Shown here in pieces: positions 1 to 64,000 of a stretch of DNA of 64,000 bases. Each line of letters starts with the position of its first letter. Positions within the stretch are counted from its first letter, which is position 1. The notes under the pieces were generated by a model. That model made no database searches, was not told the DNA's origin, and was given only the letters and a program-made list of their open reading frames with translations. This stretch comes from Obrimoposthia wandeli. Taxonomy: Eukaryota. Both the position numbers and the translations under genes were made by a program. The stretch covers positions 1 to 64,000 of the forward strand of contig CDROCS010000615.1 in the NCBI GenBank assembly GCA_977020255.1. The letters run 5' to 3'.

Positions 1-458
1 TATCCCTAAGACCTAAGATAACAACTTTACCAGAAGTGAAAATATTCACACACAATGGATTATATTTCGTTAATCTTAAGCATGGGAAAATTCCAGGTTC
101 AAAAGTGCATTCATTACGTAATACATTCCTCAATGTGAATAAATTAATAGTTTCACCTATATTTTTCACATACAGTAATTGACGAATTTTTGAAAGTAAC
201 TTTAGTTTTTTTAAAGGAAAGAAATACTTTTGATGGTTCTTTAGAACCCATAATTCGACATTTACCATTTTATGTTTCTAAAATTATAATTGTGTAATCT
301 TTACACTTATAAACATATTGGGCTGGTCTTATTTAAAATTTTAATTTTGAAAAATCACTTAAACAAATTCCTTTATAATTAATATTTGTCAACATTGTAA
401 GTATAGTACTTAATTTGAGTGTAGTATTTATATATATATATTCTTTTTTTAGATCAAA

Positions 459-1496
459 ATGTCTCAAGGTCAAACAATTTGCCAACAATATCCGTCTCAT
501 TGTCAAAAATTACAACATTTAGATTCAAGAAAATGTCACAATAAAATGAAACAGTATTATGGGTACAAATATCATCAAAATATTTATTACATTTGTCCAT
601 ATTGTTCAACTACAGAACTGGCTAATTATATGGATTTTATGAAAAACATTATCATCATTTAACTGCATTTGTAAGCAGTAAAAAAATGATGTTCAAAGTT
701 CCAGATGAAATTCGTAAAAATTCAATTCCGACTATTGATTTAAATTCAATTCCGACTACGGATTCAAATTCTAATCCAATCGCAGTTCCGGCTCCATCTC
801 GAAAGAAACGTTGATGATGGAATTAACTCTAAAACATCGATAGGAGGAAGTTATTCGACGATATCAATGAAAGTCGCTCATCTGGACCTGATTGATTTGA
901 AAGTTCCGGATAATCTTTTAGTGAAAGTAGTAGAAATAAAAATAATATGGGCAATGCAAAAATTCAATACATTATACGGATGAAATTTGAAAAAGAGGAT
1001 GGCGAAACTAAAAGAATGGTACGCATCTTATAAGGCAGTTATATTTAGTTACGAAAAATTCCTGAAATTGAAGAAACTATGGTTAAGAAAGTTGAAGAAT
1101 ATTCGGAAAATGGAAGTGGATGAAAATTGATAAAGGTTTTAGAATATGCATTTGTTATGACGAAATATAGTGAAATATCTGCTTTATCAGGACATTCATT
1201 CATTCCAACACCAAAATCGTTATCAAAAAGTAAAGCCGTTGTAAATGTTCAAAACAATGACAACCTCTGTTTTATTTATGCAATTCTAGCTGTTTTGAAA
1301 CATGATGAAATTACTAGTCATACAACTCGTGTAGGAAAGTATTCACCATTTTTGAAAGATTTGGTGTTGGACGAAATAGATATGCCAATTAAAATTTCAA
1401 ACATACCAAAATATGAAACAAAAAGAACCTAAATATAAGAATAAATGTATTTTTATACAACGATTTCGTCAATGAAGAAAAAGATGTTGATGTTAT
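459..1496 (+). pseudogene. PolB N-terminal copy 1, frameshifted and truncated
   Basis: Same sequence as copies 2 and 3 but with several single-base indels that break the frame. Confidence 0.85.
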
Positions 1497-1867
1497 AAGC
1501 ATGGCAAAATTCCAGGTTCAAAAGTGCATTCATTACGTAATACATTCCTCAATGTGAATAAATTAATAGTTTCACCTATATTTTCACATACAGTAATTGA
1601 CTGAATTTTAGTAACTTTGATTTTTAAAGGAAAAGAAATACTTTTAAGTGGTTCTTTAGAACCCATAATTCGACATTTACCATTTCTAAAAATTATAATT
1701 GTGTAATCTTTACACTTATAAACATATTGGGCTGGTCTTATTTAAAATTTTAATTTTGAAAAATCACTTAAACAAATTCCTTTATAATTAATATTTGTCA
1801 ACATTGTAAGTATAGTACTTAATTTGAGTGTAGTATTTATATATATATATTCTTTTTTTAGATCAAA

Positions 1868-2905
1868 ATGTCTCAAGGTCAAACAATTTGCCAACAATAT
1901 CCGTCTCATTGTCAAGAATTACAACATTTAGATTCAAGAAAATGTCACAATAAAATGAAACAGTATTATGGGTACAAATATCATCAAAATATTTATTACA
2001 TTTGTCCATATTGTTCAACTACAGAACTGGCTAATTATATGGATTTTTATGAAAAACATTATCATCATTTAACTGCATTTGTAAGCAGTAAAAAAATGAT
2101 GTTCAAAGTTCCAGATGAAATTCGTAAAAATTCAATTCCGACTATTGATTTAAATTCAATTCCGACTACGGATTTAAATTCTAATCCAATCGCAGTTCCG
2201 GCTCCATCTCGAAAGAGAAACGTTGATGATGGAATTAACTCTAAAACATCGATAGGAGGAAGTTATTCGACGATATCAATGAAAGTCGCTCATCTGGACC
2301 TGATTGATTTGAAAGTTCCGGATAATCTTTTAGTGAAAGTAGTAGAAATAAAGAATAATATGGGCAATGCAAAAATTCAATACATTATACGGATGAAATT
2401 TGAAAAAGAGGATGGCGAAACTAAAGAATGGTACGCATCTTATAAGGCGGTTATATTTAGTTACGAAAAAATTCCTGAAATTGAAGAAACTATGGTTAAG
2501 AAAGTTGAAGAATATTCGGAAAATGGAAGTGGATGAAAATTGATAAAGGTTTTAGAATATGCATTTGTTATGACGAAATATAGTGAAATATCTGCTTTAT
2601 CAGGACATTCATTCATTCCAACACCAAAATCGTTATCAAAAAGTAAAGCCGTTGTAAATGTTCAAAACAATGACAACCTCTGTTTTATTTATGCAATTCT
2701 AGCTGTTTTGAAACATGATGAAATTACTAGTCATACAACTCGTGTAGGAAAGTATTCACCATTTTTGAAAGATTTGGTGTTTGACGAAATAGATATGCCA
2801 ATGAAGATTTCAAACATACCAAAATTTGAAACAAAGAACCTAAATATAAGAATAAATGTATTTTTATACAACGATTTCGTCAATGAAGAAAAAGATGTTG
2901 ATGTT
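1868..2905 (+). pseudogene. PolB N-terminal copy 2, truncated at the repeat junction
   Basis: ORFs 1868-2536 and 2540-2968 are in frame across one TGA (ENGSG*KLIKV). Confidence 0.85.
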
Positions 2906-3278
2906 ATAAGCATGGGAAAATTCCAGGTTCAAAAGTGCATTCATTACGTAATACATTCCTCAATGTGAATAAATTAATAGTTTCACCTATATTTTCACAT
3001 ACAGTAATTGACTGAATTTTAGTAACTTTGATTTTTAAAGGAAAAGAAATACTTTTAAGTGGTTCTTTAGAACCCATAATTCGACATTTACCATTTCTAA
3101 AAATTATAATTGTGTAATCTTTACACTTATAAACATATTGGGCTGGTCTTATTTAAAATTTTAATTTTGAAAAATCACTTAAACAAATTCCTTTATAATT
3201 AATATTTGTCAACATTGTAAGTATAGTACTTAATTTGAGTGTAGTATTTATATATATATATTCTTTTTTTAGATCAAA

Positions 3279-5642
3279 ATGTCTCAAGGTCAAACAATTT
3301 GCCAACAATATCCGTCTCATTGTCAAGAATTACAACATTTAGATTCAAGAAAATGTCACAATAAAATGAAACAGTATTATGGGTACAAATATCATCAAAA
3401 TATTTATTACATTTGTCCATATTGTTCAACTACAGAACTGGCTAATTATATGGATTTTTATGAAAAACATTATCATCATTTAACTGCATTTGTAAGCAGT
3501 AAAAAAATGATGTTCAAAGTTCCAGATGAAATTCGTAAAAATTCAATTCCGACTATTGATTTAAATTCAATTCCGACTACGGATTTAAATTCTAATCCAA
3601 TCGCAGTTCCGGCTCCATCTCGAAAGAGAAACGTTGATGATGGAATTAACTCTAAAACATCGATAGGAGGAAGTTATTCGACGATATCAATGAAAGTCGC
3701 TCATCTGGACCTGATTGATTTGAAAGTTCCGGATAATCTTTTAGTGAAAGTAGTAGAAATAAAGAATAATATGGGCAATGCAAAAATTCAATACATTATA
3801 CGGATGAAATTTGAAAAAGAGGATGGCGAAACTAAAGAATGGTACGCATCTTATAAGGCGGTTATATTTAGTTACGAAAAAATTCCTGAAATTGAAGAAA
3901 CTATGGTTAAGAAAGTTGAAGAATATTCGGAAAATGGAAGTGGATGAAAATTGATAAAGGTTTTAGAATATGCATTTGTTATGACGAAATATAGTGAAAT
4001 ATCTGCTTTATCAGGACATTCATTCATTCCAACACCAAAATCGTTATCAAAAAGTAAAGCCGTTGTAAATGTTCAAAACAATGACAACCTCTGTTTTATT
4101 TATGCAATTCTAGCTGTTTTGAAACATGATGAAATTACTAGTCATACAACTCGTGTAGGAAAGTATTCACCATTTTTGAAAGATTTGGTGTTTGACGAAA
4201 TAGATATGCCAATGAAGATTTCAAACATACCAAAATTTGAAACAAAGAACCTAAATATAAGAATAAATGTATTTTTATACAACGATTTCGTCAATGAAGA
4301 AAAAGATGTTGATGTTATAAAACATCCCTATATAGACATTGCATATAGATCGAAGAAAAAGAATGGACAGATTGTTAATTTGCTACTGTTGGAGCATAAT
4401 GAATGTTTTCATTACATTGCTGTAACCAATCCTGATCGTCTTTTAAATATTAGGTCTAACTCCATAAGAATTTCTCGAAAATGGTGCGAAAAGTGTCTGC
4501 ATGGTTTTAGATCAGATGTAGCATTGGATAAGCATATTGTTTTATGTGATTTAAATAATGAAGGTACAACAATGTATACCATGCCAAAGGAAAAATATGT
4601 CAAATTCACAGATTGGTCAAAAACAGTGTCTCCTAAATATGTAGTTTACGCAGACTTTGAGGCGACTTTAGTACCTGATGATGAGTATTATCAAAAACAT
4701 ATGCCAATAGCATCGGGTTTGCTATTTATGAGTACTGATGAAAAATAAAAGTCATATTATTATAATGTCGGTCCTGATTGTGTATACAGTTTTCTATCTA
4801 CGTTGGAATATTTTGCAAATAACATAGTTTTACCCTGGTATGTAAGAGCAACGCAAAATAAAATATTACCGTTGACTTTTAAGGAAAACTTTGAATTTCA
4901 ACATGCTAGCAAATGTTATCTTTGTCGCGAAACTAGTGATTATTATGTTAAAGATCATGATCATAATACCGGGAAATATTTAGGTGCAGCATGTAATACT
5001 TGTAATCTTTCAAGAAAACTTCGACCAGTATTACCAGTCGTATTTCATAATCTACGAGGTTATGATTTACATCATATACTAAAGCATGCTTAACATAGGT
5101 TTCCAAAATGGAAAATAAATGTAATACCACAATCAACGGAAAAGTTTCAAGCCATGATTGTACACTTGGATAAAATATCAATTCGTTTTATAGACTCTTT
5201 ACAATTTTTACAATCGTCTTTGGAAAAATTAGTAAATACATTACCGAGTATCCCGTTGACAAGAACCGTATTCCCTTCTAAACTTATTGATGGAAAGGGT
5301 ATTTTTCCTTATGACTTTGCTACTTCTTTGGCTGTTCTGGAGAATAAAACATGTTTACCATCAAAATGGAGTGAAAAAATTACAGACGAAGAATATCAAA
5401 AGGCGCAAGATGTTTGGGAACTGATGAAATGTAAAAATATGGTAGACTATATGCTTGTATATTTGAAGACAGATGTGTATTTGTTAGCCGACGTCTTTCA
5501 AACGTTTCGAAGAAAAGCAATCGATGAAGATGGTTTGGAACCTCTTAACTTTTTCAGTATTCCAGGATTAAGTTGGGCTAGCGCACTAAAAATGCTAGAT
5601 CATAAAGTTGAACTAATGCAAGATCCTGAAATTTTTACATGA
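3279..5642 (+). pseudogene. Protein-primed DNA polymerase B (Polinton/adintovirus type), 5' half
   Basis: Four in-frame ORF segments separated by single stops (3945, 4746, 5091). Motifs include CPYC zinc finger, GSG(W), KAVVNVQNNDNLCF, VYADFE (ExoI), CYLC..DHDHNTGKYLGAACNTCN (endonuclease VII-like), VFHNLRGYDLH (ExoII), RFIDSLQFL, KGIFPYD and YLKTDVYLLADVF (ExoIII). Confidence 0.92.
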
Positions 5643-16070: not shown

Positions 16071-16719
16071 GCAAACTGCGAAACTGTAAGTGTGTGTGAC
16101 TTTATATTCAATTACCTCGTCAGTTGTCTCCCTGATCTGGTCCTGCTGGCGCGGCGGTGATGGCTCGATCACGATGACTGTTGCTGCTGTATCGCTGCTG
16201 TGTTGCTGCTGTATTGCTGCTGTGTTGCTGCTGTATTGCTGCTGTTTTGCTGCTGTGTTGCTGCTGTATTGCTGCTCCGACACCGTGGGAATTTGTTGCG
16301 GCGCTGTTGAATTCTGTCCAAGTATGACAGTTTCTTACTAATTTCTTTTTTCTTACGGTGATGATGATTGATTTCCTGACTGCAGCTGTTTTGGCTCCCA
16401 CGCTATTTGGTACTTATTCTTCGTCAATTAATTGATTAATTCGCTTCGTTTTCTTATTTCTTGGTTAATTCTTTTTGGGGCCCTTTTGTTTTGATTTAAC
16501 TTAATATATACTCACGCATTACACACGACCATCGTGGTCCTTTAATATTTATTTACTATTTAAACTCGACAATTTATTTTTGATATAAAATTTATTTAAT
16601 TCTAACCTTGCTTTCAAGGATTTTTATTCACTATAAATACACTTCATTATTTAATTTTTTACAATTCCTAAACCTAACAGCATCATAAACAAGAATCCTT
16701 GTTACCTGTGTAATAAGCG

Positions 16720-17200
16720 TTGTGTCGGGAGTTACGAGATGACGATCACATGACATGGAAATATCTTGGAGTAGCACTTAGCAAGTTCAATATATCCAGA
16801 CGTCTGCATCGTATTCTCCTAGTGGTTTTCCATAACCTGAGAGGGTACCATCTCCATCATATTTTGAAGCATGCGCTGAGCAAGTTTCCTAACTTCAGCA
16901 TTTCGGGGATTCCCCATTCAATGGGAAAATTTCAGGCAATGCTTGCGCACATAGATGGAGTGTGTTTTCAATTTATCGATTCACTGCAGTTCCTGGATAG
17001 CAGTCTCGAGAAACTGGTTGAGAATCTTGATGATGTGCTTCTAACGCACTGGGTCATCCACTCTTGTTACCGGAAAGGGCATCTTCCCATATGATAGGGC
17101 GGTATCAGATACTACTCTCCGATCAATCTCAAGCCTTCCCTCAAAATGGAATGAGGAAATCCCAAATGATCAATATGAGTTGGCAGATAAGGTGTGAACC
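16720..17200 (+). pseudogene. Second PolB fragment (exonuclease region)
   Basis: DDDHMTWKYLG, VFHNLRGYHLHHILKHA and FQFIDSLQFLDSSLEKLV are homologous to 4803-5642. Confidence 0.85.
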
Positions 17201-17613
17201 GAGCTCAAAAAAAAAAAAGAGCCAGGAGAAAAGTAAAGTTTGTCCAATCAGTTACAGGAGGTAGAGAGAAACGATAGTGATTCTACAAGACCGCATAGTG
17301 ATCGACAAAGAATCTGGCCACAAAGCTTGTCTTCGGAGGGGAAAACTGTCCGAGTGAGATAGTTAAAACTGTGTCCAGCTGCACTCACACGTAACATAAA
17401 TCAATAAATTGGTTCACATATACAGCTATGGAGAAAAAGGAATTATGTATGAGAGTGAGAGTTTGGATGTGAGTGTGGATGAGAGTGTGGATGATGGATG
17501 AAAATAATGGATCCTAAGTCAGTCAATCTGACAGCCGATCCTGACAACACTGGATCAAAGTCGATCAACCGCTGTATCCCGGCCAAATATGCGCATTCTG
17601 ATTCTTTTTCTCC

Positions 17614-17700
17614 TTATCTCTGACTTCGCGGGAATTTTGCCCACCGCGAAGCCAGATATAAGTTTGCCACCCCTTGATGAGCCCGGCGAGGCAAAGGATA
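17614..17700 (+). ncRNA. Hairpin plus degenerate hammerhead ribozyme (likely inactive)
   Basis: 18-bp stem with 16/18 pairs, then TTGATGAGCCCGGCGAGGCAAA, which aligns to the intact hammerhead at 18356. Confidence 0.55.
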
Positions 17701-17942
17701 TAACAAAAATGCCAAAGTGCATTATTAATCGAAAAAATATTTCCCTAATGAAGGAAATTTCAAACAACATTTCACTAGGGAAATGACTTCTAATTTTCTA
17801 TATTTTCAATGAATTATAATTTGTTTTCATTAAAATGTTTTAATTAATTCTAACAAATACTACTCATAAAAACAACATGCCCACAAAAACATTCCCAACA
17901 CAATTATGAATTCCAAGTTGAAATTGTTGAATGTACCAGTAA

Positions 17943-18197
17943 CTAATTTAGGTAATTCAATTGAATCCACTCTTGTCCTGGTATAATTAATTTTTGTATT
18001 AAACACGTCAAATTGTTATTTGAAAATTGTGACGATTTTCGTCTGCATTGGCGACTATATTCTGCCACAACACACAACGCACACAGAAGAATATGGATCG
18101 ACAGGAGAAAGACCTGCACAATAATTGTTGGAGTGCAGTAGTTGTTTATGCTGCTAATTTCAGGTAAGTTAAAAAGGGGAGAGAGATATGTGGCCAC
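17943..18197 (-). CDS. Hypothetical ORF inside the Polinton derivative
   Basis: 84-aa ORF starting with ATG; no motif recognised. Confidence 0.25.
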   Translation of the reverse strand: MATYLSPLFNLPEISSINNYCTPTIIVQVFLLSIHILLCALCVVAEYSRQCRRKSSQFSNNNLTCLIQKLIIPGQEWIQLNYLN

Positions 18198-18355
18198 GGT
18201 GTGTGTGTGTGCACATGATGATGATGTTGCTGATGATTATGATTTTGTGTATGTGTGTGATTATTGATTTTTTGCACATTTGCATTTTTAAATGAGTCAT
18301 TATTATATCTGGCTTCGCGGGCGTTTGCTCACTGTGATGTCATAGATAATGCCAC

Positions 18356-18401
18356 CTCCCTGACGAGCCCGGAAGGGCGAAACGGGTTTATTCCGTCGGA
18401 G
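18356..18401 (+). ncRNA. Type I hammerhead ribozyme
   Basis: CTCC (stem I) - CTGACGA - GCCC GGAA GGGC (stem II) - GAA - ACGG GTTTATT CCGT (stem III) - C (GUC cleavage triplet at 18395-18397) - GGAG (stem I). Confidence 0.85.
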
Positions 18402-18547
18402 ATTGAAAATAAAAATATCTCCCTGATTGTGGACACTTCAGTTAAATGTCAATTTAAATGAATTGACTCAAATTAATTAATTTTTAATCACAACATTTGG
18501 TTTCATTCATTCATTGTGTAATTTTTTTTTTTTTTTTTAGTATAGTT

Positions 18548-18906
18548 TTAATAATCAATTTCAGTAATCAAATTTAGAAAATACTTTTTAAACTTATTTA
18601 ATTTCATCAATCTATTAGCCTTTGTTAGAGTATTTTCCTTTTCCCCATTCCCATTCTTATGTGGCCCTAATGAGGAGTTCATGTGTTTTGTGCATGCCTT
18701 TATGCTTCTAGAATGATGCGGTTCCCATAAAAGCAGAAGCAAAGGAAGACAGGAAGCTCCGTAACCTCAAACGCTTCTTTATTTAAGAATGGCTCGATGA
18801 GGCGTGTCTTTTCTTCCAAAACGCACTTGCTTTCCATTATTTTTCTATAATATTCTCCATAGTTAAAATAATGACAAGACAGGAAAAATGTTTCTTCTTT
18901 ATACAC
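18548..18906 (-). pseudogene. Hypothetical frameshifted ORF inside the Polinton derivative
   Basis: Two overlapping ORFs (18700-18906 and 18548-18742) probably represent one broken gene. Confidence 0.25.
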
Positions 18907-19309: not shown

Positions 19310-19884
19310 CTTGAAAATGATGTATAAGTGGTTTTAAAACTTTTTAATTTTGGCCCCAAAAATTTTTGAAAATTTAAATATAAAAATTCTTTAAATAAGT
19401 TTTAAACCTTTTTAAAAAAATCTAAAAAATTAAAGGTCTACCCATGAAGGTCTATCCAAGGTCTGACCGATCTCTGACCAAATTTATTATCTATAATATC
19501 AAAAAATAGAAAATTGAAATTTTTTGAAGGGTTTGAAGGTTTTTGACCATTTAAGGTGTAACCCTCGAGGGTCTGGTTAACCCTGGTCGAAGCTACGAAC
19601 TCTTATGTATCCTTTGGTGAAGACCGCATGTCAAAAATATGTATGGTTTATCTTGAAAGTACATAACTACTATAGTATTTCTCGACTGTCAACGGATGTC
19701 TGCGAATGTCTACGAATGTGAACTGAGTAGACATTTGACGGAGGATGAGTCATCATCCGTAACCAATGACATCATCGTCCGTTGAAATGAGTCATACTTT
19801 AAGAAAAACAAAGACACCTATCCGTCGAACGGCTACTCTGTGGGGTTCAAATGTCTTTGTTCCAAAAGACACACATCCCCTACT
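19310..19884 (-). repeat. Polinton long-type right TIR
   Basis: Reverse complement starts AGTAGGGGATGTGTGTCTTTTGGAACAAAG. Its inner part (19310-19560) is colinear with 57600-57915. Confidence 0.75.
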
Positions 19885-23039: not shown

Positions 23040-24690
23040 TGGGATCTGCAGTTTTGATGTGCTATGGCGGCTCCGCATGAGCTTATTATAAATAACTTCC
23101 GATGGATCACACAGCGATGTGGTAGAAAGACGTCCGGAAACTTAGAGTTCACACCTTTGGGTTGACGGTTCTGTTTAGGTAACACTTGCCAAATCACTGG
23201 TGAGCCCATGTCAGAGTAGATCGGTCATATAAGTTGATTAAAATTTGGCCTTTGATGAATGTACAAATCCGAGAAGAGTAAAAAGATGGGAAATATCTGA
23301 AATGTTTTATTGCGCGATTGAGAAAGAAGTTCAAACTGCTCATAAAAGTCTCCACAATCACCGAGATGGAATACGCAAAGTGAAGGTAAATATGATAAAT
23401 GTCGATCACATTGAGCCAGAGGAAAGGGAAGTCAGAAGAGGGGAAAGGCTCACACAATCTCCACAGTGATGACGACAGAGTCCTTCTTCATGGCTCTTGC
23501 GTGTCCTGTGAGACTGAAATAAGGAGAAGAACAAACGCGGACTCGATCATCCTTCTGCGGTCTCTGACCATTGCCAGTCCACGACTTAGACCAAATCTCC
23601 ATCCCGGAGTCGGGGTCCGTCACCCACAGTCGCAGAGGCAGCCTCATTGGCCACTGCAGTGCGGCATCTTCTGATGATCCTACCAGGCAGAGTTCTGTCC
23701 AGATAGAGTTGCCACTAAACAACCCCAGCTCCAGTTGCATGTGGTATCCTCGGAGGAGGAATGTGCTGCTATATTGACCTCTCTCTATGACTCGTGTCGC
23801 AGTCCAGATGTGCCGGTCCGCGGTCGCCGGTGCTCGATGAAGCGATGTCGCTCCCGCTCGGCCCTGCGCACACACAAACAGCTGCTCATTCCACATTCCA
23901 CACAGCACCATCGTCCGGGCGACCTCTCAATCGCGACACCGATTTACCTCTTCCGAGAGCCACCGCCGATATTTACTACCCGGACAATTTACCGCACAAC
24001 CACAGCCCATAAAAGGGAATACTCGAAAAAATTACATACACCAAACACAGCAGGAATTATAACAATTCTCCACACCAATACATCAGACATTTGCCGGAGC
24101 TGAAACAACCACAATGAGAATACACTGCAGAAACAATCGGCAGAAAACAAAATAACAATTTCCCAATCAGAAGCTCAAACTCCGAAAACGGAGCCAGACA
24201 CCGCATAGTAACAAACAAGCACCATCGTCATCAAATGTTGGGCCAGAGCTGAAAAACGTCGAGTAAAGATGAATTCTACCTCGAAGAGCGACTACTGCAA
24301 ACTTGACTCAACAACACAAGCTGAAGTTCACCTCATAGGTGACGTCCTCACTACACTCAACAGAGCCGCATTCTTTAGCAAAATCAAAAAAGAATATGGG
24401 AACATAAAACAAACAGGGAATAGCTCCAAAAGAAACATCACACATTCAAACCCACACTAAAACACTCACAAGACGTTGTAAAATCACACAACATTCACAA
24501 CTTCGAGGGAGGAACCCACGTATCAAATAATACGATTAAACAAAGCAATAAAACCTCCACAATGAAGGGAAATGAAAGAGGCCACATACAACAAGAATCT
24601 CAAATCCAGGATAGACAAGAAGAGAAACCCAAATTCGACATTTCTAACCGAACAGGCCGCACTCAGATAATGCCAACCAATGCCCAAACT
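23040..24690 (+). pseudogene. Ty3/Gypsy gag remnant
   Basis: Across frames: GSA*AYYK*LPMDHTAMW, CQITGEPMSE* (major-homology-like) and LAFDECTNP..ISEMFYCAI, followed by a low-complexity tail. Confidence 0.5.
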
Positions 24691-24979
24691 TGACACTGCT
24701 GATCACGCTCGGATAAATGAAGATATTGTGGAAATAAAATAACCCCACACACAAAATTGTTCCACACTAAAATGAGGGAGGCTCACTGTGATGATAAAAT
24801 AATGAGTAGCTGGCGTAATAATCCCACTCGCACCTGACAATGTCAATTTACAACACTTATATTGATTAACTCCCTCGATCTCAGTTCCCAATGTTGCCCT
24901 TTCATCGATCCCATCTCAGCATCGCCGATTCCCTGTGAAAGTGGCTCCATTCGTCACTGATTTTGCTGCAGAACATCAA

Positions 24980-26163
24980 TTACCCCCGCTCCAGCTGCCT
25001 TCTCCACCCCGCTCGTCGTCGTCGCTCTCTCCTTTTCTGAATCTGCCTTCTTCTGCGCCACTTCCTCCTGCAATGCGTCATAAATAGAGCGAGGGGGATA
25101 ATTACTTTAACTCGGTCTATTTCCTTCTTCAATTGAGCCACTTCTCGCAAATATTCATCGAGCGCCGTCTTCATATCGGCCTTTGTCGCCAGAGTCGCTC
25201 TTAATTCGCCAATTTCCTTTCTCATTTTCTCTGAGTCCGATTTCTTCTCGTCAATCTTCGTCTGCCATTTCGTATTATCCTCAGACTTTGATTCAGTAAC
25301 CCTCTTTATATCTTCCTTCATTTCCCTCCGCATACAATCGATATTATCTTTGTTCTCTTTGATTGTTTGACTCATCTTCCCATTATCCTCTCTCAATCTC
25401 TCAACTTTCTTCTGCCACTGTTCAATTTCTCCCAAGAATTCTTCTTTATCCTTCTTAATTTCTGCTTCTCTCAACTCTAATTTCTTCTTCTTCTCCACAT
25501 TCTCCGCTCTCAGAGCCGCCACATCCGCCACAATCGCATCAATCGCCGCCTTGGATTCGTTATCTCTCGCTTCACACGCAACTCTCAACTCTGTGTGGTC
25601 TTCTTTCAGCTTATCCGTCTCATTTCTGATGACAGACTCGTATCCTTGCTCCGCCTGCAGTGACTCGAAACCGTTCTTGAGCAGACACAGAGTCTCGACA
25701 ATAAACCGACAGTGCGCCATTCTTCCTTCATCGAGATGCTTGTTCAGCTCCATCGCATTCAATTGCGCACTCATACATCCGATGCTGCTGAAAATGCAGA
25801 CCGACTTTGTTAAAGGACAAGATACAATGTGCTCCATCAGCTGCAGCAACTCGCATTTCTCCTCACATCCATCGTGCGGGCAAGTGACAACAAGCTTGTT
25901 TATTTCCCTCGTGGACTTCCTGCATTGATATCGCGGTCGTATCTTATTTCTGTTGTGATTTTATCCATGATACAACCTGGGCACGGCTTCAAGTCTTCCC
26001 CGAGATATTTGTGGATGCATTCGTCACAGAACACGCAACCACAAACAGCCACCATGGGCTGTCTCAGAATTAAGGAACACATTGAGCACTTTACATATGG
26101 AGATACATGCGATACGTCAAATTCTAAATTGTGGTATTTTAAATATTTCCAAATATTATTCAT
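24980..26163 (-). pseudogene. TRAF-like protein: RING, TRAF-type zinc finger and coiled coil; one frameshift near 25920
   Basis: CSMCSLILRQPMVAVCGCVFCDECI...CPGC, then REINKLVVTCPHDGC...LMEHIVSCP...CIFSSIGC, then a long E/K-rich heptad region. No MATH domain is visible. Confidence 0.8.
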
Positions 26164-27829
26164 ATTAAAATAAATAAATATTGTAAAATTATAGTAAAAT
26201 ATTCTGTATAAATCGAAAAAAATAGATAAACAAATATAGGTTAAATTGTCCATATAAATATTAGTTTAAAACCAGTTCAAATAATTAGTCAGTAATTAAC
26301 ATATACGCTAATTGAAGATACATTAGTGGCGGAATAAATTTGTTCAAAATGTAATTTTATGTTGAATAAAAATATTTTTGTAGTCTTGGGCAGTGGGATA
26401 TTTTATTGGTTTATTAAATATTTCGAGTTACTGAAAGTTAATAATGATAAGAAATAAAAATAAACTTTTTAATAATGTTTAGCCAAATCAGATTATCGAT
26501 TCAGTAAAAGAAATAAGTTTGCAGTGCGAATAATAAGAAAAACTGATGTTATATATAATGTTATAAATACACTCAAGTGAATTTATTTACTTTTGAAATT
26601 TCATTGAATCGAAGAATCAGGCATAGTTATCATTGATAATGAAATCTAATTAAATATTGTTTGCAAGCTTTTCATGAAGTCTGATAGTAAATATGTTAAA
26701 TTTAGGAAATATTTAATAGTCGAACTGTATGATGTGTTTTGTTATTTACTAAATGATTATTAAATATTATCGACCTGTTTAAGACTCAAAAATTATTCAG
26801 TATGAAATTTTTTTTTCTGATTTGATATCAAATTATGACATGAAAGTTCAATAGATTATTTTGACCAAAGTGGATTACAATATATAAGCACAAAATATGA
26901 ATATATTAAGCAATGGTACAAAACTTAATATTTGTAAATCTCAAAATTCCATTAACAAAGTTATTTTTTTTTAAATTAAAACTATTTTAAAGACTAAAAA
27001 GACGATCCTAATTATTTTAATATTGTGGTTTGGAAATATTAAAAAAATCTTTTGAAAGAAACATTTAGTCAATATCAAAAAAATTAATTTAATTGTTTTG
27101 AATATAACACGTTTAGAGTATTCGTCGATAGTTTACAATTGAAATCATATATTTTGTAGCACAAATTTGATTTTATAATTTAAAATCAATTTTTCCGTAT
27201 TGCTATTTATTAGACTAAATCGGACATTTGTATTAAATATATTTAAAAAAATTTAATATATAGTTAATAAGAGGAAGATTAAAAGAATAGCATGAGACCA
27301 TTCATAGTGTAGTAAGACATTTTTTTGATTACGAATGTAATGTGTATTATTATTATGTATACAATTTAAGTTTTTAGCAATTTTTATTTAATTATGATAC
27401 TTTTATGATTTTATTACTTCAACGTCAGAGGTCTGACTTTGATTTCCTCCATAGTATTGTTGAGAATTAAAATATTCCAATTTAAATCAATTTATCGAGT
27501 GCCAACAGTCGAACAGCGATTTCGTCAGTGATCTCCAGTTTTTATCTTGCGCTTCGCGGTAGGAATATTGCTCGCGAAATAGGAGAAAACACAGAAGAAA
27601 TGAATGCATCCGTTATCGATTTTATTGCCTACACAATTTAACTGCATCACATACACACATGTTATTGTACTGCTTCTATCTGTGTAGTGGTACCGATTAA
27701 CGTGTGTGTCTGCAAATTTATGTAATGTCACTTGCGACAGAAATATTAATATAAAATTGTTTGGCATAGAGATTTGATATAATTTCTAAAACTAATTTGT
27801 AAATTGCTACAGAAAAAAAGAATTATTGT

Positions 27830-61778: not shown

Positions 61779-62258
61779 TTAATATAATTTACACATGATA
61801 ACGATTAAAAATTCGTATTTGATGAAGCATAGCTTAATTGGGAGCGGCAATAGTCCGTTTAGCTTTAACAAGATTGGAAGAGATAAAAATGTAATAACAA
61901 TGCAAGCAGCATGTAAACTACCATAATGGCCACATACTAAAATCTTACCACCATTTTTGATAGTTTCTTTAATTATATTATTAGTCTGTTTATAATACGT
62001 CATTATTGTTTCTCCTAACTTTGAGTTTACAAAGACAGAAGTATATTTAAATTTCTTATAATATATCTTATTCAGTATATATGTATTGATTACATGAGTG
62101 AATTCGGATTTCAAAAGTTTAGTTTCATCAAAAGCATCTCGATAATTGCCAATATATAATTGATTTACAAAAATCTCACGCATTTTTGTTTTGTTTAATT
62201 TTTCTACATTAAGTTGAGTAAATCTAGTACTAAACAAACTATCAAAAAGATGGGTCAT
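61779..62258 (-). CDS. Dual-specificity phosphatase-like protein with a degenerate active site
   Basis: EIFVNQLYIGNYRDAFDETKL..FTHVIN and IKNGGKILVCGHYGSLHAACIV, compared with the canonical VHCxxGxSRS. Confidence 0.75.
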   Translation of the reverse strand: MTHLFDSLFSTRFTQLNVEKLNKTKMREIFVNQLYIGNYRDAFDETKLLKSEFTHVINTYILNKIYYKKFKYTSVFVNSKLGETIMTYYKQTNNIIKETIKNGGKILVCGHYGSLHAACIVITFLSLPILLKLNGLLPLPIKLCFIKYEFLIVIMCKLY

Positions 62259-62524
62259 GTGTTTGATTTCATTGGAGTATCAGTTTCATTATAGACACGT
62301 GATTTGATTGGAGTATTATTCAACTTTTTCATTGTACTTAACATCTCATGTATATGTTGTTGATGACGTAACCTAAAGAATTAAATAAACTACAAATAAA
62401 TATTACTCATGACTATTTTTCCTAATTAAAGCATTGAGAATAACTGAATATCTTTTAATGCATCCTGTACATCTTTACATTCAATAATTTCATTCATTTT
62501 ATGATAAAGCAAATCAAATATTGT

Positions 62525-63053
62525 TTATAACCCAGAAAATTCTATTTTTAGTAACATTGCGTCTATTTGCTTGTCTTTGTTTAGGAAATAAATAACACAA
62601 ATGTGAAGATCTATATTAAACAAAATACATTCAATCTGATATTCATAATTTAAAGATTTAACATCAATTATCATAATCTTCCCGCTCGCAAAAATGTTCA
62701 CGCATTGTGAATTGTACTTGACGTATCGAAGTCCCGGGAAGATCTCTGGCTCGTAAACAGCTTCCGAACCCATACTCTTGCTCATCTTGCTCAGGTTTAT
62801 TGATGTTTCTAGATTGCTTCTGAGACTGAGTGATATGATTGTTTTTGATTTTTATATCAAAAGGAAGAGTGCTTTCATCCAACACTGTTTTACAACCCAT
62901 TATTCTGCATGTCATTAAATTATAATTATATTTAAATGTAAAAAATAAATTACCAGATTTGAAAATGATAATAGTATAACCTTCACACTTGAGTCGATAC
63001 TGATGAGGCTTCGAAGTCCGAAATTGTAAGTGTTAAATGTTACTTACAACCAT
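62525..63053 (-). pseudogene. TBP-fold gene, copy 2
   Basis: YTIIIFKSG|TCRIMGCK and AVYEPEIFPGLRYVKYNSQCVNIFASGKIMIIDVKS. 39-nt intron-like insert at 62915-62953, one stop and one frameshift. Confidence 0.8.
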
Positions 63054-63170
63054 TCCCTTGTAATTAATATTCACTAATTTGATATTGTGAAGTAGCATTT
63101 CTGATTATTATAAACTGATTTCTTCTTTTTATACTATTTGAATATATATTTTTAGATTACATGTCTTTGT

Positions 63171-64000
63171 TTAATTGTCTATACTATGAAATATAATATT
63201 TCTTACTCGTCTAATGATAATTGTCTTGAAATATGGACGATCTGAACATTTAATACACGTGTTTAAGTGTCCGCATGGTAAAAATGCAACGGAAATCATA
63301 TCTGTCATGCAAACAACACATTCGGGATTTGGTAAGAGGTATTCGAGATAATTTATACGATGTTTTGGTTCAGATTTTATTTCTAAAGATCTTAAATCCA
63401 TTATAAACTCATATATAGAATCATATTTATTACCGAATGTTTTAAACCTATTAACTAAAACGGCTTTGATTCTATTATCGCTATAATCACGTTTCAGCAA
63501 AACATTTTGACGAGTTTCCATCTGAGCATCAATTTCATCATTACTAATATGATATTCAACAATACATCCGTTCTTGATTTCCATACTAGATGCTTTACAA
63601 TCTCGAGTATGAAATATTCTTTCAGGCAATCTATCAATAAACTCAAGTCGAGGTACTGCTTTCTGACAGAAACAACATCGATAAGAATCATTCCAAATAT
63701 AGACTGTGTGGGAAAATCGATAATGTAGGTATTTAAATATCATTAAAATAATTATTACGTACAATTACTACTTTATCTATTGGAGTTGAATCAAAATCAA
63801 TTTGCTTGATGCTGGAATCAATTATTGGTATATTTGATACATTCATTTTCAAAACAAACGGACATGTTGGGAAATATAGCATATGCTGCTTCATTGATTT
63901 CAGATAGTACTCACATTCCGATATTCCTCCCAGACAGTAAACACACTTTACATTGTCACTTGAATCATCGTGCTTATTAATTCCTGCTTTTGCTAAAGCT
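63171..64000 (-). CDS. Inhibitor-of-apoptosis-like protein (BIR, BIR-like, RING); 5' end lies outside the window
   Basis: LAKAG...DNVKCVYCLGG...KQHMLYFPTCPFV (BIR), DSYRCCFC...H..DC and CVVCMTDMISVAFLPCGHLNTCIKC (IAP-type RING). A frame change near 63760 may be an intron or a lesion. Confidence 0.8.

Follow-up and report, generated by a model that had tools for sequence, protein, structure and literature searches.

According to the accessible portions of their descriptions, plant LTR retrozymes carry a hammerhead ribozyme in each LTR and are non-coding, the ribozyme being of type III and located on the same strand as the primer-binding site (PBS) (PMC4918200, PMC7761336, PMC5680766). They are presented as non-autonomous, with 600-1000 bp inside, and their likeness to autonomous gypsy elements is limited to the end boxes (Cervera et al. 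2016; PMC4918200, partial text). In animals, the type I hammerheads described in the excerpts drawn on here reside in the repeats of Penelope-like elements (PLEs) and in non-LTR retrozymes (PMC4209133, PMC7229834, 10.64898/2026.07.22.740005). As for gypsy-like elements of animals, the Burro/GYPSM1 elements of planarians are reported, in the sections consulted, to exceed 30 kb and to encode MATH, BIR, BCL2-like and ankyrin domains (PMC6431247), and the Juno/Vesta LTR retrotransposons of bdelloid rotifers to carry a DEDDy ORF3 (PMC5408684).

In the mostly open-access literature, Repbase reports and supplements aside, we found no publication that describes a hammerhead for autonomous LTR elements of animals (on either strand), for Burro or for Polintons. 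The portion of PMC6431247 at hand makes no mention of a ribozyme in Burro LTRs, the word hammerhead is absent from the main text of PMC5408684, and term look-ups for LTR hammerheads returned no match in PMC3088659 or 10.64898/2025.12.11.693146.

Here, we analyze a 64,000-nucleotide stretch of DNA (the window), in which a preliminary description had placed a complete type I hammerhead at 18356-18401 and read it as a feature of a Polinton derivative. Sequence comparisons indicate that this old passenger copy leads to a young gypsy family, envelope-bearing and high in copy number, whose LTRs hold an antisense hammerhead that is very probably under selection. All of the evidence comes from one genome.

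Results

Sequence and fold of the hammerhead

The motif on which the analysis centers is the following.

18354..18403, plus strand: type I hammerhead ribozyme motif, antisense to its host LTR, predicted cleavage after C18397 (sequence, Rfam match, family covariation)

Read 5' to 3', positions 18356-18401 contain the stem I 5' strand, CUGACGA, stem II, GAAA, stem III, GUC and the stem I 3' strand. The core is hence of the form CUGANGA, GAAA and NUH round a three-way junction, with three covariation-backed helices of which helix I is open, as in type I hammerheads. The complete hammerhead of the preliminary description is borne out, with all core nucleotides seen, and the Rfam model check that it had suggested returned a match to RF00163 (Hammerhead_1) at 18354-18403 that extends over the full model (positions 1-45 of 45; 32.1 bits, E 5.8e-6). 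Since 32.1 bits is just below the gathering score of 34, an Rfam scan of the whole window at the gathering score was blank. The three 4-bp stems originally proposed need amending: stem II does have 4 bp, with a GGAA loop, but stem III has five pairs if A-U and G-U are counted, and stem I has four contiguous pairs followed by a C-A mismatch and then an A-U pair. The minimum free energy fold of the isolated 46-mer is not a hammerhead (z -0.54). At the sequence level, what argues against a chance origin is covariation across the LTR family, and not the fold energy of the 46-mer. The window thus contributes an old passenger copy that has decayed in part, with its core intact.

Insertion site

The surroundings of the hammerhead comprise two nested LTRs and pieces of a Polinton.

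16698..17208, plus strand: Polinton pPolB fragment, the insertion target, outside the ribozyme's element (match to a TIR-bounded Polinton)
17214..17900, minus strand: second LTR (LTR-A), of subfamily A, lying within LTR-B and oriented alike (exact 4-bp duplication)
17901..18495, minus strand: solo LTR-B of the Ty3/gypsy family, subfamily B, decayed; TG start at 18495, reading leftwards
18496..18499, plus strand: right copy of the LTR-B 4-bp target-site duplication (2 of 4 bases equal the left copy in the paralog; the length fits the empty site)
18500..18615, plus strand: Polinton resuming after the LTR, an AT-rich intron-like pPolB segment (pPolB copies)
19833..19884, plus strand: end of the Polinton terminal inverted repeat (TIR) (match to a TIR-bounded Polinton)

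The surroundings are confirmed as a deleted Polinton derivative. The pPolB and terminal-repeat pieces, including a second terminal-repeat piece at ~13630, match a TIR-bounded reference Polinton of 15.6 kb that encodes an A32 ATPase, an integrase and pPolB, which upholds the physical location originally given. The attribution of the hammerhead to the Polinton as a viral feature did not survive comparison with other Polinton copies, absence from which had been named beforehand as its refutation. The ribozyme and its LTR are absent from all 28 other pPolB copies (1.5 kb on each side), in 27 of which the empty site is seen, with sequence running straight across. Four larger Polinton regions (100 kb), of which two extend from TIR to TIR, likewise showed neither ribozyme nor LTR in a profile search; in none of these copies does the same site hold a hammerhead. 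Compared with the empty site, the filled one has the insert and 4 bp more, with 2 of the 4 bases still matching.

When the genome (1.35 Gb) was searched with 18250-18500, the best 40 of 3,257 candidates were scored. Among 29 other loci with the window repeat, the window flanks are common to only one, a paralog, while the remaining loci have 200-500 bp in common, all ending at ~18495. It is nearly certain that the hammerhead is of LTR rather than Polinton origin. It lies ~100 nt inside the edge of LTR-B, and its location on the PolB strand reflects nothing but the reverse orientation in which this LTR inserted. A reading of the repeat as a PLE pLTR or retrozyme, based on a sharp 3' end and a ragged 5' end, was rejected, the sharp end being the TG start of the LTR.

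The U5 end of LTR-B is deleted in the window and retained in the paralogous locus (C6348). A 420-bp window deletion took the far ends of both LTR-A and LTR-B, which are kept in the paralog, and LTR-A holds a decayed hammerhead at ~17670-17697. B-type LTRs adjoin the pre-LTR motif and the DEDD open reading frame (ORF) of the family described below at C6442, C3719 and C3126, and subfamily B therefore belongs to this gypsy family. A full-length B-subfamily element was not found among 29 + 16 B-type loci, the internal side being viewed at three.

Several side observations concern the Polintons and the rest of the window. The pPolB gene is apparently split by an AT-rich GT...AG segment of ~130 bp (C1455, L117:2130-2290; window 18500-18615) with PF03175 matches on either side; the segment resembles a spliceosomal intron, here within a gene of a Polinton. 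The insertion point of LTR-B is exactly the 5' boundary of this segment. The TIR-bounded Polinton at C1455 carries an ORF with BIR and RING domains (IAP-like; L232:6047-7069). Elsewhere in the window are an older pPolB copy with a 1.4-kb triple tandem repeat at its start (77-4320), minus-strand exons for a TRAF-like zinc finger and MATH (23450-25960), and a dual-specificity phosphatase together with a RING ORF (61779-63743). A third family LTR with the pre-LTR motif (27400-27700, plus strand) is of subfamily E; ~45 unrelated bases replace the hammerhead in it, and both flanks are kept.

The retrotransposon family

The hammerhead pattern has 1,409 exact matches in the genome (control, 0), many of them same-strand pairs ~13 kb apart. 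Eight of nine pairs spaced 13-16 kb apart are direct repeats of 1.0-1.3 kb (one of 2.7 kb, a tandem copy) that are 97-100% identical. These repeats are LTRs with TG...CA ends, the first of which is followed by a putative tRNA primer-binding site, a TGG-starting motif beside the LTR end. Exact 4-bp target-site duplications flank five of eight young copies, and the elements are 14,252-15,261 bp long (eight copies). The genes are arranged in the order gag, a fusion glycoprotein of Monjiviricetes type (PF24664), protease (PR), reverse transcriptase (RT), RNase H (RH), integrase (IN), an ORF without Pfam match and an RNase_T/DEDD exonuclease. Direct LTRs with TG...CA ends, a short duplication and the order PR-RT-RH-IN after gag are those of Ty3/gypsy elements. 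In the C203 copy, a single frame of 1,621 aa runs from the gag position through the glycoprotein into the protease. The motif before the 3' LTR is conserved and is not purine-rich. All element genes are on the strand opposite the ribozyme, and each LTR of the young copies carries a ribozyme antisense to gag-pol.

The ORF that follows the integrase is 370 aa long and has no Pfam match. Between subfamilies with ~85-95% identical pol (~90% for RT-RH-IN), identity of the DEDD exonuclease ORF is only 37-43% (L049-L050, D-type copies). At C46 (L226-L229, C46:1-42000) and C203, tandem elements with a common LTR occur, as do runs of four same-strand LTRs spaced 1.2-1.6 kb; the four at C46 are 75-93% identical to each other over their ends. 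An internally deleted derivative in this set keeps the gag start, part of the ORF without Pfam match and the DEDD ORF. The tandem elements and the nested pair in the window hint at insertion into the family's own LTRs. At C208, a chimeric LTR contains two different hammerheads ~110 bp apart (L098:3881-4095).

Two 10.4-kb arrays, at C3296 and C2584, were considered as LTR pairs and rejected, each consisting of near-identical tandem repeats with one B-type copy. A more distant gypsy element at C227 (~50% RT identity) has direct repeats of more than 3 kb, in which no hammerhead profile match was found; the hammerhead at this locus was rejected as the element's own, since it sits in an inserted solo D-type LTR. 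Protein homologs of the family are 54% identical at best. A search for other hosts gave no match in prokaryote genomes and, as candidates, one metagenome locus at 29% identity and three viral contigs that fit a hammerhead pattern.

Distribution, covariation and loss

A hammerhead-blind sample was taken from the PBS matches, of which there are 2,133 in the genome (control, 3), and the first 30 loci were examined. The sequences 1.5 kb upstream form 16 clusters. An antisense hammerhead match is present in the 5' LTR of 24 of the 30 loci (21 pass a strict three-stem test), and a sense-strand hammerhead in none. The other six are one false site and five blank loci, the latter comprising a full-length element without ribozyme in both LTRs, two members of subfamily E (hammerhead replaced), an internal deletion and a locus with no LTR end before the site. 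That these LTRs lack the ribozyme rests on profile search and reading by eye; an Rfam scan of the hammerhead-less LTRs gave no match, but missed the positive control (L200) as well. Since hammerhead-less LTRs have transposed, as the full-length element and subfamily E attest, the ribozyme is dispensable.

With the stems fixed and the core and loop left free, there are 3,495 genome matches (control, 0). A hand count of the first 100 listed found CUGANGA and GAA kept in 96. N7, the only core base that varies freely, is U in 47, C in 49 and A in 4, and the last base of loop II is A in all 100. Across 20 variants, both partners have changed in 9 of 15 pairs, with pairing in 96.7% of cells (an initial set of 30 rows gave 7 of 15 such double changes). 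None of 500 shuffles and none of the slid controls reached the covariation of the 20 variants, although these rows are related and partly hammerhead-picked, so that the shuffle counts are not probabilities. Wobble pairs favor the ribozyme strand, with 7 G-U vs 1 A-C in eight variants. When young LTRs are compared with those of subfamilies D, B and A, the ribozyme is 70-80% identical, vs 40-60% for the next 50 nt inward (shuffles, 44-60%) and 54-74% for the 50 nt outward; part of the ribozyme's conservation may belong to the LTR edge. No antisense ORF of at least 100 aa is common to all eight copies, and three of the eight have one of 108-192 aa ~4.2 kb from the 3' end. All 10 matches returned by a genome Rfam search, in which the best 74 candidates were scored, belong to this LTR family. 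Judging from these patterns, we consider it very probable that the motif has been selected as a catalytic antisense ribozyme.

Among 12 old B copies picked blind, four have deletions over all or part of the ribozyme (L063, L065, L072 and L073, the last two of which look like duplicates); hairpin-driven deletion and host selection are both possible explanations. Three more of the 12 are interrupted before the ribozyme. A long inverted repeat lies immediately 5' of the ribozyme (window 18304-18349) and is common to subfamilies A, B and D and to the ribozyme-less subfamily E, and is not seen in the young Y LTRs.

Tertiary contact and competing hairpin

Two short segments downstream of stem I bear on the activity of the ribozyme.

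18404..18406, plus strand: conserved UGA that follows stem I (in 20 rows, G and A do not vary and U is kept in at least 90%)
18417..18422, plus strand: downstream competitor ATCTCC, pairing with the stem I 3' strand at 18398-18403 (partition-function folding)

U18404, located 7 nt past the cleavage site, is the predicted partner of A18374, the last base of loop II. In the hammerheads of the blind sample, a U is found at +7 in 21 of 23 and an A at the end of loop II in 23 of 23. The trans-Hoogsteen contact of fast hammerheads uses U1.7 and loop-II A bases (PMC9217987, partial text). The bases of such a predicted helix I-loop II contact are present here.

The preliminary description had suggested that ATCTCC competes for the stem I 3' strand and might act as a switch. 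The competition stands for the window copy, in which partition-function folding (row L014 was left out of the set) lowers the stem I probability from 0.70 to 0.00 once 30 nt of downstream sequence is added, and in young copies the competitor hairpin lowers stem I in most settings. A universal switch does not hold up: 18 of 23 blind-sample hammerheads have the competitor and those of subfamilies A and D lack it, which makes it a subfamily trait. The loss of stem I at equilibrium when the competitor is present could mean weak cleavage.

Discussion

What is observed directly is the identity of the LTR, its orientation, its copy number, the covariation and the absence from other Polintons. On function, we lean slightly towards the view that the hammerhead at the U3 end of the LTR, opposite gag-pol, is of use to the element in that it would cut antisense transcripts shortly before their exit from the LTR. 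Its antisense location means that the ribozyme cannot cut the element's own genomic RNA. Possible substrates would be RNAs copied from the opposite strand, i.e., host read-through, divergent LTR transcription or a piRNA-cluster precursor. By hammerhead chemistry, such an antisense RNA would be cleaved after GUC, ~100 nt from the LTR edge, leaving a 2',3'-cyclic phosphate and a 5'-OH. In the 3' LTR, the cut would uncap host read-through or divergent transcripts ~100 nt ahead of the DEDD and pol genes, and less long antisense or double-stranded RNA would feed silencing; in the 5' LTR, it would sever read-out into host DNA. A cut made by a ribozyme can set off exonucleolytic decay and termination. 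In subfamilies B and Y, the downstream hairpin might capture the first bases of the 3' product, which would make cleavage co-transcriptional and one-way, or else damp it. The role in ending read-through transcripts that had been proposed for the Polinton is likely to persist in altered form, on behalf of the antisense strand of the retrotransposon and not of the PolB strand.

A further step, possible but doubtful, would be that the 3' end of the element is an anti-silencing module, in which the U3 antisense ribozyme severs piRNA-cluster or read-through RNA and leaves a 5'-OH unfit for Piwi, beside a fast-evolving DEDD exonuclease. Piwi loading requires a 5' phosphate. If true, such a module would represent a transposon counter-defence by self-cleaving RNA, as well as a candidate source of the hammerheads of LTR retrozymes.

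It is unlikely that the two antisense ribozymes of an element, or of LTRs in tandem, set free an antisense RNA of unit length that becomes circular, as happens in plant LTR retrozymes, and that is then the product used by the element. The ribozyme does occupy the same position in both LTRs, tandem elements with common LTRs and same-strand LTR runs with a spacing of 1.2-1.6 kb exist, and hammerhead products are circularised by RtcB (PMC7229834, partial text). However, the primer-binding site is reversed on the antisense strand, so that RT could not prime as proposed in the available account of plant retrozymes (PMC7761336). The unit would be 13-14 kb, vs 0.6-1 kb in plants (PMC4918200, partial text), and the four same-strand LTRs at C46 differ (75-93% over their ends), so they are no monomer array.

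Also unlikely is that the ribozyme forms one end of a functional antisense RNA, be it the 3' terminus of a short capped transcript started at a divergent U3 promoter or the 5' terminus of a long message or regulator, comparable to the antisense transcripts of retroviral 3' LTRs. This would accommodate the fixed position of the ribozyme near the U3 edge, the hairpin that would cap the 5' end of the 3' product in B and Y, and the antisense ORF found at about the same place in three of eight copies. Yet no such ORF is present in all copies, the sequence 5' of the ribozyme has shuffle-level identity between young and older subfamilies, and an uncapped 5'-OH RNA is a poor message.

We consider it quite improbable that a Penelope-like element or retrozyme was the donor of the motif, which would then have been kept, without catalysis, as a DNA or sense-strand structure such as a promoter, LTR-edge or priming signal. 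Type I hammerheads of animals are mostly borne by PLEs or retrozymes in the texts available (PMC7229834, PMC4209133), the adjoining LTR edge is conserved, and loss of the ribozyme is tolerated. Against this stand the unpaired catalytic bases, which are kept while N7 varies freely, the covarying stems with wobbles that favor the ribozyme strand, the retained contact bases U1.7 and loop-II A, and the lack of a visible donor, the 10 Rfam matches (best 74 candidates scored) all falling within this LTR family. The original reading of a Polinton feature that ends PolB-strand read-through is scarcely credible: the hammerhead does share the strand of pPolB within a Polinton derivative, but it is missing from all 28 other pPolB copies and from all four larger Polinton regions, the site is empty in 27 of 28, and the window flanks recur at 1 of 29 related loci, a paralog.

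The cutting of antisense transcripts would set this hammerhead apart in its task. Retroelement ribozymes are known from the copied strand, as in plant LTR retrozymes, at the 5' ends of R2 and L1Tc and in PLE repeats. A ribozyme on the opposite strand cannot process the element's genome, and a hammerhead maintained there by selection, in a young LTR element that is coding and present in many copies, points to another task, namely antisense RNA control. The solo LTRs, of which there are thousands, could in addition cleave host transcripts running through them in one of the two orientations. Since a single genome holds both thousands of copies and subfamilies that naturally lack the ribozyme, the idea of antisense control can be tested directly.

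The family compares with four groups of elements as they are described in the parts of the literature cited. Like PLE pLTRs and non-LTR retrozymes, it has a type I hammerhead in the terminal repeat of an animal mobile element. The hammerheads of those systems have a minimal or short helix III and lie in PLE repeats or in tandem units of 150-450 bp, without LTR, PBS or 4-bp duplication. Here, in contrast, helix III is a full 5 bp, the repeat is a true LTR and the element bears an integrase; neither short tandem units nor the PLE combination of RT with GIY-YIG characterizes the family. With Burro, it shares a mononegavirus-like fusion glycoprotein in frame between gag and protease, the gypsy domain order and thousands of copies (PMC6431247). 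Going by this architecture, the host is probably a planarian. Compared by domain content and length, it differs from Burro in being 14-15 kb long and in its 3' DEDD exonuclease, and MATH, BIR, BCL2-like and ankyrin domains were not found in 18 ORFs of the family. The extra 3' ORF for a DEDD-type exonuclease in a gypsy-like element recalls Juno/Vesta (PMC5408684), for which the available text mentions no glycoprotein between gag and pol such as is present here. As in plant LTR retrozymes, there is a hammerhead in both LTRs, together with Ty3/gypsy-type ends, a primer-binding site and 4-bp duplications (PMC4918200). Unlike those retrozymes, this gypsy family is coding, 14-15 kb long and from an animal, and its hammerheads are of type I and antisense in 24 of 24 blind matches.
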